A stretch of 64,000 nt of DNA from Nitrospirota bacterium (GCA_016208915.1 JACQXE010000005.1:2177-66176); one strand, 5' to 3'. Counted from the stretch's first letter, positions 21,594-29,074 are shown. Program-made: numbers and translations. The notes: a model not told the origin generated them from the sequence alone.

Positions 21594-22919
21594 TTATATG
21601 TCAAGATACTTTTCGAGTTCCCATTTAGTTACCTGCATCTTGAATTCATTCCACTCTTTTGTTTTTATATGGATATATTTTGTATAAAGATGTTCTCCCA
21701 ATGCTTCATGCATAAGCTTGTTGTTCTTTAGTTCATTAATAGCCTCGTAAAGTGAGGACGGCAGTGTATCTATGTTTTTCATTGCGAGTTTTTCTTCGTC
21801 AAACTTATACAAATTTTCCTCGACAGGCTCAGACAATTGAATATTTTTCTTTATGCCATAAAGTCCGGCTGCAAGCATTACTGTAAAAGCAAGATAAGGA
21901 TTGCAGGCGGGATCAGGACATCTAAGCTCTATCCTCGCTGAATTAGGCTTATCCTCAAACCAGTGGGGAACCCTTATAAGTGCCGACCTGTTAATCCTTG
22001 CCCATGAAATATAAACAGGAGCCTCAAACCCTGTCACAAGTCTCTTGTATGAATTGACCGTAGGACACAAAACTGCCATCATACCCTTAATATGGTGTAG
22101 TTGTCCGGAAATAAAATTATATGCCGTTTTTGAAAGCTTATACTTATCTTTGAGGTTATAAAATAAATTCTGCCTTTTTTTAGCATGAAAAAGGCTTTGA
22201 TGCACATGCATTCCTGAGCCAGCCATGCCCATAACAGGTTTTGGCATAAAAGAAGCCTTCAAGCCGTGCCTTTGTGCTATTGCCTTTACTGTTATTCGTA
22301 ATGTTAAAAGCCTGTCAGCAGTGGTAAGCGCCTCGCCGTATTTAAAATCGATCTCATGCTGACCAGGAGCAACTTCATGATGAGAAGCTTCAACATCTAT
22401 ACCAAACGTCTCAAGGGCAGTTGTGATCTCTTTTCTAACTTCGTGCGCCTTATCAGTGGCAAGATCAAAATAGCCTCCATTATCCATTGGCATAAGCCCC
22501 TGAGAATCATTATTGAAAAGAAAGAACTCCAGTTCAGGACCAACATTATAATCAAAACCCATTTCATATGCTTTTTTCAAAGTCCTCTTCAGTATGAAAC
22601 GAGGATCCCCTTCAAATGGACTGCCGTCAGGCTTATAAATATCGCAGATTAGTCTTGCGGTATTCCCCTCTGGAGAACTCAGCCACGGTATAATTGCATA
22701 AGTATTTGGATCTGGTTTTAAATACAGGTCGCTCTCGTGGATCCTTGCAAATCCTTCTACTGAAGAGCCGTCAAACCACGCGCCATATTTCATTATGTCT
22801 GACAGCGACTGAACTGGTGCAGTTACCTCCTTAAGACACCCAAGCATATCTGTAAACTGAAGATTGACGAAAATTACCTTATCTGCCTTTGCCTTGTTTA
22901 AAACCTCTTTTGTCTTCAT
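21594..22919 (-). CDS. glnA: Glutamine synthetase type I-alpha
   Basis: FDGSSVEGF, HHEVAPGQHEIDF, ELRCPDP; 441 aa, lacks the GSI-beta insertion. Confidence 0.93.
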   Translation of the reverse strand: MKTKEVLNKAKADKVIFVNLQFTDMLGCLKEVTAPVQSLSDIMKYGAWFDGSSVEGFARIHESDLYLKPDPNTYAIIPWLSSPEGNTARLICDIYKPDGSPFEGDPRFILKRTLKKAYEMGFDYNVGPELEFFLFNNDSQGLMPMDNGGYFDLATDKAHEVRKEITTALETFGIDVEASHHEVAPGQHEIDFKYGEALTTADRLLTLRITVKAIAQRHGLKASFMPKPVMGMAGSGMHVHQSLFHAKKRQNLFYNLKDKYKLSKTAYNFISGQLHHIKGMMAVLCPTVNSYKRLVTGFEAPVYISWARINRSALIRVPHWFEDKPNSARIELRCPDPACNPYLAFTVMLAAGLYGIKKNIQLSEPVEENLYKFDEEKLAMKNIDTLPSSLYEAINELKNNKLMHEALGEHLYTKYIHIKTKEWNEFKMQVTKWELEKYLDI

Positions 22920-23260
22920 TAGGTTATTGCACTCTCTCCTTTCTGCCCTGTTCTTATTCTTACTGCATCTTTGATTGTACTTACAAAGATTTTCCCATCC
23001 CCAATTTCTCCAGTCTTTGCAGTCTCTTCTATTACCCTGACTGCTTCTTCTTCAATACTGTCAGGCACTATTATTTCTATCATAAGCTTAGGGATAAAAT
23101 CCACAGCATATTCTGAAGAGCGATAAAGTTCGGTATGTCCCTTCTGCCTGCCAAAACCCTTAACTTCTGTTACTGTCATGCCCTGAACACCAAGATTATT
23201 AAGAGCCTCTTTGACAGCATCCAGCTTAAAAGGCTTTATAATAGCCTCGATCTTTTTCAT
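22919..23260 (-). CDS. glnB: PII protein (Tyr51)
   Basis: PII signature; overlaps nrpR2 stop and glnA2 start. Confidence 0.92.
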
Positions 23261-24243
23261 CTTATCTCCTTCAAGGCATCTTTGAATCTTAACAGTTTTG
23301 AATACTCAAAAAGGGTTGACATGGCCCTGCTCTGTGTTGCTATGCCAGACTCCTCAATTGCAGCAATTGGGTTCAATCCACCAACAATCACCATGCCTGC
23401 CTTGTCAATCCCAACAGGAACCTCTAAAAGCGACTTGTTGGGATCCCCTATAAATAAAATACCACCTATCCCCTTTTTTGCAATATCCTTTGTAAGGCCC
23501 TTTGCCTCTTCCATACACACAACAGGTATTTCACGAAAACTTGCAAGAATCTTCCCTGAAGAACCCTTTACCGCTCCCAATACATCAGTCATCTTCCCCC
23601 TGATAAATATCTCAAGAGGGTCAAGAGAAGACCCATCATAGCTTATGAGCGATATAAATCTCACAGGCTTTCCATTATTGATCTCAACCACTCCTCCAAA
23701 TCTTGAAGCAACAGGAATGCCTGACTTTAAGAATATGCCGTTAATAGTTACGCTGCACACCGTGCCAAGACCAATACATTTCTCAGGAATAAGAACATCG
23801 CCTATCTTCGCGCCCCCGTGCGCAAAAATCACCCTGTCACTCATTACATAAGGTGATGCAAATATAGGGGTTAATATCTTTATCGCCTCCTTAAGCTTGA
23901 CCGTTGGAAAACATGAAATATTTAGAATCACATTCCCAACCATGCTCTTAAGGTTCAACGTCGTCAGATATGAAAGCGCCTCTATCTTGCTGATAACAAA
24001 TCCAACTTTTTCAGAGACAAGAGAATACTGAAGTTCTTTTCTGCCTCTTTCTGTAATCTTCCTTCCCTCCTTGCCAAACACCTCTGTATAGCCACGTTCA
24101 TCTAAAATCTTCAGGTGATAACGGACAGTCCTCTCTGTGAGGTCAATACCATGCAACCTCAGCTGCCTCGATATCTCCCTTGAACCAACTACATCTGAAT
24201 ATTTATCCAGTATCTTCAGTATAGATAGCATCGGTTTGTTCAT
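23257..24243 (-). CDS. nrpR: Nitrogen repressor NrpR, paralog 2
   Basis: Co-linear and highly similar to 7535..8527. Confidence 0.85.
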
Positions 24244-24263
24244 AAACATAACCCCATCAAATC

Positions 24264-24297
24264 AGGTTGAGTTTAAGAGTCTTCTCAAACTCAACCT
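24264..24297. terminator. Intergenic hairpin (terminator or processing site)
   Basis: AGGTTGAGTTT...AAACTCAACCT. Confidence 0.55.
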
Positions 24298-24306
24298 TTT
24301 TATTGT

Positions 24307-27582: not shown

Positions 27583-27690
27583 TTTTTTCCTCCGTTAATA
27601 CGTCCATTTTTTTGTGATAACAACTTTTAGCGCTTACTGCTGATAATTTTTGTTATTAAATTTCTCACCTCCTCTTAAGTGTAGTTAAAT

Positions 27691-27714
27691 AAATACTTAA
27701 CAAATTAAGTATTT
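27691..27714. promoter_or_regulatory. Perfect 10-bp-arm palindrome, candidate operator
   Basis: AAATACTTAA-CAAA-TTAAGTATTT overlapping a minus-strand TTGCCT-18-TAATTT promoter candidate. Confidence 0.6.
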
Positions 27715-27778
27715 CTAAAGCGAGCAGGCAAAAAAAATCCACTAAGGGATTTTCAAGCTGCATTCATTAGAGTTTGTA

Positions 27779-29053
27779 TCATATGCACATGACCAGTAAC
27801 TCGGCCTCCTCATTTACGTTATTTTTCCAGAGAGAAGGTAACGAATCCGTGATATACACTGAATCGCCGGGTTTAAGCATCCTTTCTTTATTGTCGATTT
27901 TCACTGTTATATTCCCTTTTATGACATATATAAGTTCTTCCCTTTTATGCTGAAGAAAATGTCTATTCAATTCAGCGGAAGGATTCAGCACTGTTATAAA
28001 AGCAGATGTTTTATTTTTGGATATTATATTGAATATTGAATAGCTTTGATCTTTTTCGAACAGATTGTCTCGCATAGTATCACTGTCAATGAGCCATTCA
28101 GCCCCATTGTTTTTTTGCCCCTGCTGTAGAAAAATGGCAGGATTTATTCCAAGCGTATCTGCTATCTGGAGAAAAGAATTTAATGACGGGCTTATCTGAT
28201 TATTTTCAAGCTGCGATATGAAACTCGGCGTAAGCCCTATCTTATCGGCAAGGTCTTTCTGCGACATATTCAGTCTTCCCCGGGCTTCCTTAACGCGGCT
28301 GCCGATATCGTATGAAGGCTCTTTCTTTGCAGGCAGTATTAGGATATTACCGTCTTCTATTTCATAGGAATGGGGTTTGAATGCCTCTCTGTCTGTTCTG
28401 CCATCAAGCTTTAGGGCTTTCAGAAATAATTTGTCTCTCCTTTTGTAAAGTTCGATCACGACCTGGGTTATATGTCTGAGGTTTGCCTTGAAAGTCTGGC
28501 TGTGCGCTTCTTTTTCGAGTATCCAGTATGCAACAGTGCCGAGATCATACAACCTGGGGCACATGTAGGTAAAGAATTTGTATGTGCTGCTTTCATCCCC
28601 CCAGAGGTCCTGTATTCCGGTTAAGCTGTCGAATATATACAGAGCGCCTCCTGATAATTTTTCTTGGATAGAGTTAATGGTCTCATTAAAAAACGATATA
28701 TCGTTCGGTCTTTCTACTTTTATTATGTTTGGATATGCCGGCCGATCTGTTTCATAGAATTTCACGAATGTCTTGTCGCGTTTGCCCTTTCCTGTAGTAA
28801 AGCAATCGAGCATGATGACTTTCTCTGTATTAACAAGATTATTAATATTCATGTAAAGGAGGAGACTTTGCGGAGACCTGTTAAAACTCACATAAATAAC
28901 ATCTCGATTCTCTATGAGAGAGTTATGAATAAAGTTTTGGATAAATATTTCTTCTGATGTTCCTGCCTCAGTTTCCCAGACAACATTGTCACCTATGTGC
29001 AAGGAATCAATAAGACCATCAAGACTCTTTATGCCGGACGATATTTTTTGCAT
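27779..29053 (-). CDS. KaiC/RecA-like ATPase domain (degenerate Walker A) + XRE HTH + cupin regulator
   Basis: ISSGIKSLDGLI...IFDSLT; MSQKDLADKIGLTPSFISQLENNQISPSL; EELIYVIKG...LKPGDSVY. Confidence 0.85.
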   Translation of the reverse strand: MQKISSGIKSLDGLIDSLHIGDNVVWETEAGTSEEIFIQNFIHNSLIENRDVIYVSFNRSPQSLLLYMNINNLVNTEKVIMLDCFTTGKGKRDKTFVKFYETDRPAYPNIIKVERPNDISFFNETINSIQEKLSGGALYIFDSLTGIQDLWGDESSTYKFFTYMCPRLYDLGTVAYWILEKEAHSQTFKANLRHITQVVIELYKRRDKLFLKALKLDGRTDREAFKPHSYEIEDGNILILPAKKEPSYDIGSRVKEARGRLNMSQKDLADKIGLTPSFISQLENNQISPSLNSFLQIADTLGINPAIFLQQGQKNNGAEWLIDSDTMRDNLFEKDQSYSIFNIISKNKTSAFITVLNPSAELNRHFLQHKREELIYVIKGNITVKIDNKERMLKPGDSVYITDSLPSLWKNNVNEEAELLVMCI

Positions 29054-29074
29054 GGTAAACGGTTACCCTATGAT
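29054..29074. promoter_or_regulatory. Putative NrpR operator abutting the start codon of the XRE regulator
   Basis: GGTAAAC-GGTTACC; minus-strand TTGACA(29105-29110)-18-TAAAGT. Confidence 0.65.

Follow-up and report, generated by a model that had tools for sequence, protein, structure and literature searches.

Positions 21,594 to 29,074 of a 64,000-nt stretch of Nitrospirota DNA (GCA_016208915.1, JACQXE010000005.1:2177-66176; the whole stretch is hereafter the window) carry a gene for a regulator with KaiC-like, XRE and cupin domains and, behind it, genes for two flavoproteins, the nitrogen repressor NrpR, a PII protein and a glutamine synthetase (GS). We propose, at a probability of about one half, that NrpR represses the regulator, that the regulator represses the enzyme/nrpR/PII/GS operon, and that the operon is on in nitrogen excess, with NrpR and the regulator repressing each other. 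Mutual repression is the best reading of the sequence because the operator geometry is repressor-like and nrpR lies inside the operon. An earlier note made from the window's sequence had suggested such double-negative wiring. The NrpR box, the co-occurrence of regulator and enzyme, the operator geometry and the exchange of the enzyme for glutamate dehydrogenase (GDH) support that suggestion; the operator is a sequence other than the palindrome named there, and the sign of control is contested. Gene and domain calling reproduced the gene order, strands and domains described for the block. The cassette is real and conserved, and there is a fair chance that it contains a new enzyme class.

An NrpR box at the regulator gene and a predicted twin operator at the enzyme operon

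NrpR was identified by its matches to PF01995 (E 1e-82) and HTH_12 and to the solved structure 3nek (E 1e-27). The product of nrpR2 is 71% identical to that of another nrpR at 7535-8527 of the window. The pattern GGYAA-N4-TTRCC occurs 14 times in the 2.5-Mb genome, five times at nitrogen-gene promoters of the window, and these five boxes each lie just behind a near-consensus sigma-70 promoter where the promoters were scanned or read. The box at the regulator gene is 14 bp behind its TTGACA-18-TAAAGT promoter. Among the 73 loci with upstream sequence, 68 have a box within 62 nt of the regulator start; no GGYAA-N4-TTRCC was found within 21594-29053. The earlier note was right to place a putative NrpR operator on the regulator start and to describe the downstream block as lacking one.

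The box tracks NrpR. In 40 genomes fetched from the 59 with the amidotransferase gene, an exact box lay 5' of that gene in 11/20 NrpR-bearing genomes versus 0/20 that lack NrpR; with one mismatch allowed, the counts were 16/20 and 1/20. Of the 20 NrpR-bearing genomes, 13 lack the regulator, and the box is exact in five of these. By this presence/absence test, GGYAA-N4-TTRCC is the predicted NrpR operator. The archaeal NrpR box is GGAA-N6-TTCC, and that motif was not found at these nitrogen promoters. In 57 loci the next gene behind the cassette is nrpR; two of these loci have a one-mismatch box for it and five a promoter match, so that nrpR is likely co-transcribed with the enzyme operon and has no separate promoter. 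The nrpR2 orthologue is the sole nrpR in most relatives (a single match in 33 of 38 positive genomes).

Regulator and enzyme occur together. Among 401 genomes of the phylum, the regulator was detected in 74, the enzyme in 77 and both in 70, counts in which kin are not independent. In 78 genomes with the regulator, the gene directly behind it encoded the enzyme in 73, GDH in two and NrpR in one; one regulator gene stood at a contig end and one before unrelated genes.

The intergenic region ahead of the enzyme gene contains a conserved unit: a T-run, TTGCCY, 6 bp and then two sites of the consensus TTAAGYA-W-TRCTTAA, the second placed 30 or 31 bp after the first. The unit was anchored in all but 2 of 73 loci; the anchors were the T-run and the consensus, so the conservation of those columns is partly by construction. 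The twin sites were 30 or 31 bp apart in 57 of the 71 anchored loci, 32 bp apart in three and 17-22 bp apart in 11, four of which were mis-anchored. In 7 of 71 non-Nitrospirota enzyme loci, a matrix built from the Nitrospirota loci picked out the site with a perfect TTGACA exactly 6 bp ahead of it; as background, 3 of the 1931 TTGACA in this genome reach that score. Because TTGACA and site have the same offset in these Desulfobacterota loci, we infer that TTGCCT is the −35 box of the enzyme operon, with operator 1 over the spacer and −10 region and operator 2 past the likely start. Such positions would overlap the promoter as a repressor's operators do.

All seven TTGACA loci belong, by title, to Desulfobacterota or deltaproteobacteria. 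The regulator is encoded within the locus in three of them and elsewhere in the genome in another three (once in two pieces); the remaining genome, of 1.9 Mb, had none. Among 11 genomes tested that lack the site, ten had no KaiC-like regulator and one had fragments; at L123 and L131 the regulator is nearby, yet no site stands at the 6-bp offset. The full element also precedes enzyme copies distant from the regulator (L047, L139), GDH (L154, L163, L169, L170) and nrpR (L147). In loci with the second flavoprotein type (type B, below), operator 2 lies 12-23 nt 5' of the start codon. The hairpin 3' of the regulator was below −5 kcal/mol in 20/34 type A and 11/35 type B loci.

The perfect palindrome that the earlier note had taken for the regulator's operator exists but was rejected in this role. 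Among 73 orthologous intergenic regions, one has the exact sequence and six match it to within two mismatches, and this genome has 33 perfect palindromes with 10-bp arms and a 4-nt gap. One of its arms is the right half of conserved operator 1 and the other is mostly unconserved spacer. Three further candidates were dropped. T7GCC as a variant NrpR box (1-5 mismatches) was discarded because the same T-run and site follow a plain XRE-cupin paralogue in this genome, and because TTGACA replaces T7GCC in genomes where no NrpR was found. A sigma-54 promoter misfit in spacing, judged by eye. An RNA element or riboswitch had no Rfam match save one snoRNA at chance level, and the flanks of type A loci did not pair better than swapped controls.

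Some variants of the element were observed. Operator 1 flanks are self-complementary and variable in sequence in type B loci (for example, L038, L039, L043 and L133); their mean stem score was 14.6 versus 10.3 for swapped flanks (maximum 12.0) in 37 loci, kin not being independent, and the feature was absent in 34 type A loci. The complete promoter-operator unit is duplicated in tandem at L155, L157, L159 and L162. The arrangement of T-run, TTG and site also occurs 5' of gas-vesicle-like genes, named by eye, at G000:C14:14310 and G000:C20:689, one copy lying just 3' of genes for a plain 170-aa XRE-cupin protein and a PilZ-like protein. These sites may reflect either a paralogous regulator with the same geometry or a regulon that reaches these genes.

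The regulator's N-terminal RecA/KaiC-like domain (PF06745, E 5e-10), its fold assigned from sequence profiles, is its most conserved part; the cupin is poorly conserved. Although an FDSLTG-type Walker B motif is present in 113/120 homologues, the Walker A lysine was found in 0 of the 117 homologues with a readable P-loop position (120 listed), and the label of ATPase given in the earlier note is not supported. Because this lysine is absent, the domain is more likely a sensor than an ATPase. Look-alikes in a cluster atlas were KaiC/RAD55/DUF7504 clusters at 0.88-0.90, a lead only. The helix-turn-helix resembles those of restriction-modification C proteins and SinR, and the protein shares with XRE-cupin repressors the XRE and cupin domains, an adjacent target and a predicted palindromic operator.

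NrpR was found in none of five Desulfobacterota genomes with the regulator, whose completeness is not given, and their regulator genes carried no NrpR box within one mismatch. Since the regulator is present with its operator in genomes where NrpR was not found, it must respond to a signal of its own. By this distribution, the NrpR tier is a predicted Nitrospirota addition onto a regulator that already had its signal.

Relatives of the KaiC-like domain occur near the enzyme in other arrangements. Proteins of 880-1050 aa that resemble phosphoenolpyruvate (PEP) synthase (PPDK_N) adjoin the enzyme, and often GDH, at L084, L087, L088, L090, L096, L113, L115, L117, L120 and L121; they carry the same KaiC-like domain or a receiver domain and may be a further nitrogen sensor. 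In five Dehalococcoidales loci, the same KaiC-like domain is fused to a PEP-synthase-like domain directly 5' of the enzyme. At L056 (upstream of 574), an internal deletion has removed part of the regulator gene, and the NrpR box and downstream operators are kept.

The stand-alone flavoprotein and glutamate dehydrogenase

The two flavoproteins of the block, types A and B, are 54% identical to each other. The chemistry of type A is probably GDH-like, because the motifs of the 2-oxoglutarate site are kept, the coupling loop is absent and GDH takes the same slot in relatives. The sole Pfam match is to PF01645, the glutamate synthase family; the ELFV dehydrogenase fold was not matched. In an alignment with the solved Azospirillum glutamate synthase, K229 falls on K937, R249 on R957 and the GGTG loop on its counterpart; in the synthase these positions bind 2-oxoglutarate. 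The PPxH loop with E978, which presumably couples glutamate synthase to its amidotransferase, was present in 17/18 GltB-type proteins versus 0/104 members of the enzyme family. The C-terminal three-cysteine iron-sulphur (Fe-S) motif was likewise found in 0/104 members, and the cysteines of an N-terminal CxxCxxxCxxxC are invariant in 106/106.

No constant amidotransferase neighbour of the enzyme was found in 100 loci, fused longer forms not having been searched. Together with the missing PPxH loop, this agrees with the description of these proteins in the earlier note as stand-alone flavin mononucleotide (FMN) synthase subunits with no glutamine amidotransferase partner. The window's own class I amidotransferase was rejected as a partner: several near-complete genomes with the enzyme gave no match to it, and many genomes without the enzyme have it.

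Two enzyme subunits had been counted in the block; two PF01645 genes are indeed present, but only one looks intact. Of the 206 columns with 95% or higher conservation in the family, the type B copy departs at 16 (12 departures, versus a family median of 1, in a recount that included its own sequence). Its changes at otherwise invariant residues include, in type A numbering, E234K, G337D, G338E and A125T. The type B copy is probably decaying, and type A is likely the only active copy here. Second type B copies numbered 15 full and 3 partial ones, of which the decayed were this copy and those of L138, L158 and L177. A heterodimer of A and B was rejected, as many genomes have one type without the other and decay is commoner among second copies.

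All 7999 of 7999 scored candidates matched the enzyme family, and an estimated ~5900 stored stretches among species genomes encode it. The closest named relatives of type A carry a Thermodesulfovibrionales label (93% identical). A third subtype occurs at L047, L137 and L139 (and in matches in G408, G327, G371 and G314); it has its own copy of the operator element and is followed by NuoE/NuoF/molybdopterin-type genes.

Canonical GDH occupies the enzyme's slot behind the regulator in two genomes, with the element intact. Beyond a weak 75-residue match, no GDH was found in this genome. Among 118 genomes of the order, 15 have both enzyme and GDH, 43 the enzyme only, 25 GDH only and 35 neither. A wider survey covered the best 80 of 588 loci from species genomes; within the flanks fetched, neighbours of the enzyme were nrpR in 23 and GDH in 17, as well as GAF-ANTAR genes, NuoEFG-like modules and hisF/hisH-like genes. 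A four-gene NiFe hydrogenase operon replaces nrpR behind the enzyme at L037, L038, L164, L166, L171, L181 and L183; one genus of the order shows this arrangement. In Dehalococcoidia, a lone hisF-like gene lies directly 5' of the enzyme with a 22-25-nt gap (L066, L071, L077, L078, L099).

Other data weigh against GDH-like chemistry. The structure model of type A is a flavin TIM barrel (mean predicted local distance difference test score of 73, N-terminus poorly predicted) whose top fold matches were alpha-hydroxy acid oxidases, with Z of ~20-21 at 11-16% identity; glutamate synthase ranked below them (Z 16.1 over 319 residues). In a profile alignment, identity to a GltB-type subunit was 25% over 324 columns. 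A sequence search of solved structures with the enzyme yielded nothing useful. Strict mutual exclusion of GDH and enzyme was not upheld: the association is weak (odds ratio 0.49, p 0.08, kin not independent), and family f25 has both together in 12/18.

It is possible, though we consider it doubtful, that whichever way the control runs, the flavoprotein does not do the work of GDH and instead oxidizes another 2-hydroxy or amino acid, or that it partners or regulates either GDH or an amidotransferase encoded far away. The oxidase-like fold, the weak exclusion, the hisF- and hisH-like genes that adjoin the enzyme in Dehalococcoidia and its frequent encoding with GDH, whose gene it overlaps at L124, L126 and L128, all fit this explanation. 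It is opposed by the sole Pfam match, by the GDH that takes the same slot with the element intact, by the 43/58 enzyme-bearing genomes of the order that have no GDH match, and by the window's class I amidotransferase, which does not track the enzyme.

The sign of control

In the mechanism that we propose, ample nitrogen and low 2-oxoglutarate would keep NrpR on its boxes and silence glnA1, the split glutamate synthase and the regulator. With the regulator absent, the TTGCCT promoter would run, and the enzyme and more NrpR would be made. The enzyme would aminate 2-oxoglutarate with free ammonia, electrons passing through the N-terminal four-cysteine cluster to FMN. In nitrogen shortage, NrpR would leave its boxes, and the regulator would be produced, bind both operators and turn off the enzyme and nrpR, which closes a mutual-repression loop. 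The regulator would additionally be gated by its own ligand, because it appears to work in genomes without NrpR. Release of NrpR by 2-oxoglutarate is carried over from archaeal work (PMC11957540, PMC9765008). XRE-cupin regulators of Pseudomonas are reported as local inhibitors (PMC7901475), and Nac and GnfM shut GDH off in nitrogen shortage (PMC2827463, PMC2995071).

Several findings speak for the opposite sign. In other lineages, an NrpR box with at most one mismatch lies directly behind the enzyme's own promoter in 12/71 loci (shuffles: mean 2.0, maximum 8), and an exact box at the enzyme gene in 5/71 (shuffle mean 0.08); NrpR was present in 5/5 direct-box genomes. At L084 and L087 the enzyme sits in a boxed operon with glutamate synthase genes (at L087 also amtB), and at L090 and L096 GDH itself follows a boxed nrpR. 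ANTAR-type hairpins with a terminator are present in 4 of 7 Desulfobacterota operator loci. The Geobacter ANTAR regulator that has been studied antiterminates during nitrogen fixation (PMC2995071). Direct boxes, boxed operons and ANTAR attenuators all point to expression of the putative aminase in nitrogen shortage. Moreover, no consensus promoter was called at 27582-27779, and A2/T6 of the −10 box at a 17- or 18-bp spacer was found in only 43/71 loci; such a poor −10 box resembles that of a promoter needing an activator.

There is roughly one chance in four that the regulator is instead an activator, or a dual regulator that binds the spacer. Release of NrpR would then produce it, the enzyme, nrpR, PII and GS would be on in nitrogen shortage, and nrpR would provide delayed negative feedback. 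The sign would then match that of lineages whose enzyme gene has a direct NrpR box or an ANTAR leader, and this reading suits the weak −10 box and the resemblance of the helix-turn-helix to C proteins and SinR. Restriction-modification C proteins activate and then repress from twin sites. In addition, nrpR1 here is boxed, as is nrpR of L090 and L096, which suggests negative autoregulation. A tier of repressor then activator, NrpR and NrpA, exists in Methanosarcina (PMC9765008). On the other hand, it is unusual for an activator to bind over the −10 region, as at operator 1, or downstream of it, as at operator 2, which in type B loci stands shortly before the start codon; and the XRE-cupin proteins studied in Pseudomonas inhibit (PMC7901475).

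It is improbable that a single transcript under NrpR control, begun at the promoter of the regulator, accounts for most expression of the block, with the inner sites only tuning read-through by ligand. In favour of this are the weak hairpin 3' of the regulator, the uncalled inner promoter and, in type B loci, the self-complementary flanks, which suggest an RNA structure; against it, the full element precedes genes far from the regulator (L047, L139, L154, L163), survives internal deletion of the regulator (L056) and stands on a perfect TTGACA where the regulator is encoded elsewhere.

The double-negative reading bears on two further claims of the earlier note. A GDH-like free-ammonia route that is on in nitrogen excess gains from the GDH swap and the enzyme motifs, and its sign is contested by the NrpR-boxed and ANTAR-gated lineages. 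Positive feedback through more NrpR is in keeping with the place of nrpR inside the operon, where it has no separate promoter; here, too, the sign is contested.

Elsewhere in the window, sigma-54-like promoters with TAC-N6-GTA-type repeats lie 5' of both amtB operons (16870-17300 and 19958-20153). The product of the NifA-like gene at 14667-16178, a gene that lacks an NrpR box, probably acts on them, and what is left of a Fis-type C-terminus lies at ~17045-17250. Two genes that by eye resemble those for dissimilatory sulphite reductase subunits (36538-38868) fit an anaerobic sulphur-cycling host. The amidotransferase-like subunit of the split glutamate synthase had no Pfam match and is named from context and its N-terminal cysteine.

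Table 1. Positions of genes and of predicted control sites, counted from the first nucleotide of the window
Feature	Position	Strand	Remarks
NrpR boxes (8576, 8697) at divergent nrpR1 and glnA1 promoters	8576-8710	.	two boxes
NrpR box at promoter of class I amidotransferase and PII	13605-13618	.
glnA, type I-alpha glutamine synthetase	21594-22919	-	type called from its best solved relatives
PII protein gene	22919-23260	-	domain call
nrpR2	23257-24249	-	winged helix, NRD1/NRD2; domain call, homologue counts
Strong hairpin 5' of nrpR2	24264-24297	.	no U-tract in sense direction
Flavoprotein, second copy, type B	24307-25875	-	522 aa, PF01645; probably decaying
Flavin TIM-barrel enzyme, type A	25990-27582	-	530 aa, PF01645, N-terminal CxxCxxxCxxxC, motifs intact; candidate GDH-like aminase
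Predicted operator 2	27675-27689	.	30 bp downstream of operator 1; ~+8 to +22 if promoter call is right
Perfect palindrome of the earlier note	27691-27714	.	lineage-local by-product
Candidate −10 of enzyme operon	27702-27708
Predicted operator 1	27705-27719	.	consensus TTAAGYA-W-TRCTTAA; over spacer and −10 region
Predicted −35 box of enzyme operon	27726-27731	-	TTGCCT; TTGACA at same offset in Desulfobacterota
Weak hairpin and T8 3' of regulator gene	27730-27754	-	possible terminator; T-run abuts −35 box
KaiC-like/XRE/cupin regulator	27779-29053	-	424 aa; RecA/KaiC-like domain, degenerate (Walker A lysine absent); XRE helix-turn-helix; cupin
NrpR box at regulator gene	29054-29067	.	GGTAA-N4-TTACC (pattern GGYAA-N4-TTRCC); abuts start codon
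Regulator promoter, sigma-70-type	29081-29110	-	TTGACA-18-TAAAGT; consensus match
Promoter and NrpR box (29187-29200) of split glutamate synthase	29148-29200	+	TTGACA-18-TATTAT
Split glutamate synthase, divergent	29306-34471	+	amidotransferase-like, FMN/Fe-S and GXGXG/NAD(P)H subunits

Comparison with known systems

The control logic is known in kind, from Nac, GnfM and NrpA, and each domain family is known. In the open-licence literature, supplements excluded, we found no prior study of the regulator architecture, its operator, the NrpR-regulator loop or the function of the enzyme; nor did we find in the open-licence literature one of bacterial NrpR in these taxa. In PMC10746287, the drop in gdhA seen during nitrogen fixation was not significant; PMC8457756 had no bearing on the subject. 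Databases label the enzyme family glutamate synthase even though its members have no glutamine-coupling parts. If it is a flavin-based equivalent of GDH, a route that saves ATP is missing from the nitrogen models for Nitrospirota, Desulfobacterota, Dehalococcoidia and Omnitrophota, and glutamate synthase has a synthase half able to exist alone. Our broadest proposal is speculative and, as a whole, unlikely: a third, ATP-free route of ammonia assimilation would extend across many anaerobic phyla, using a stand-alone FMN/iron-sulphur glutamate-forming enzyme that draws low-potential electrons, has hydrogenase or NuoEFG-type modules as neighbours and is interchangeable with GDH. In Nitrospirota, a bistable NrpR/XRE toggle would govern this route, and its second repressor would sense nitrogen with a dead RecA/KaiC-like domain. 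The analysis yields a bacterial NrpR box, which a presence/absence test supports, and the predicted operator of a regulator family not described before; both are open to binding assays.

The closest parallels in logic are NtrC-Nac-gdhA of Escherichia coli (PMC2827463) and GnfM-gdhA of Geobacter sulfurreducens (PMC2995071). In both, a tier active in nitrogen shortage turns off the free-ammonia route while GS and glutamate synthase are on, as predicted here. The block differs in using NrpR and an XRE-cupin protein, in targeting an uncharacterized flavoenzyme and in placing the master regulator's gene inside the repressed operon. With methanogen NrpR (PMC11957540, PMC9765008; 3nek) the block shares NRD1/NRD2, the winged helix and a box placed where transcription of glnA and of further nitrogen genes begins. 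By contrast, the host here is bacterial and the box is GGYAA-N4-TTRCC. Further, nrpR is reported as not nitrogen-regulated in methanogens, whereas here it lies in a regulated operon, and their second tier, NrpA, is an activator (PMC9765008), whereas ours is a predicted repressor.

The Pseudomonas repressors PsdR and PauR (PMC7901475) have in common with the regulator the XRE and cupin domains, an adjacent target and a palindromic promoter site. The regulator, however, has an extra, highly conserved RecA/KaiC-like domain without the Walker A lysine, a poorly conserved cupin and a position under a global repressor. As for the enzyme, it shares with the FMN domain of glutamate synthase (GltB, split GltB2; 1ea0/2vdc) the flavin TIM barrel, the KxGQGAK and GGTG motifs and the aligned K937/R957 positions. 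It is 25% identical to GltB2, lacks the PPxH loop, the C-terminal Fe-S motif and a constant amidotransferase neighbour, and has a new N-terminal four-cysteine motif. NAD(P)-dependent GDH (PF00208/PF02812) occupies the same regulatory slot in relatives and has the same proposed net reaction. Its fold is unrelated to that of the enzyme, in which electrons would pass via Fe-S and FMN rather than directly from NAD(P)H; the likeness is one of working like GDH, not of membership in its family.

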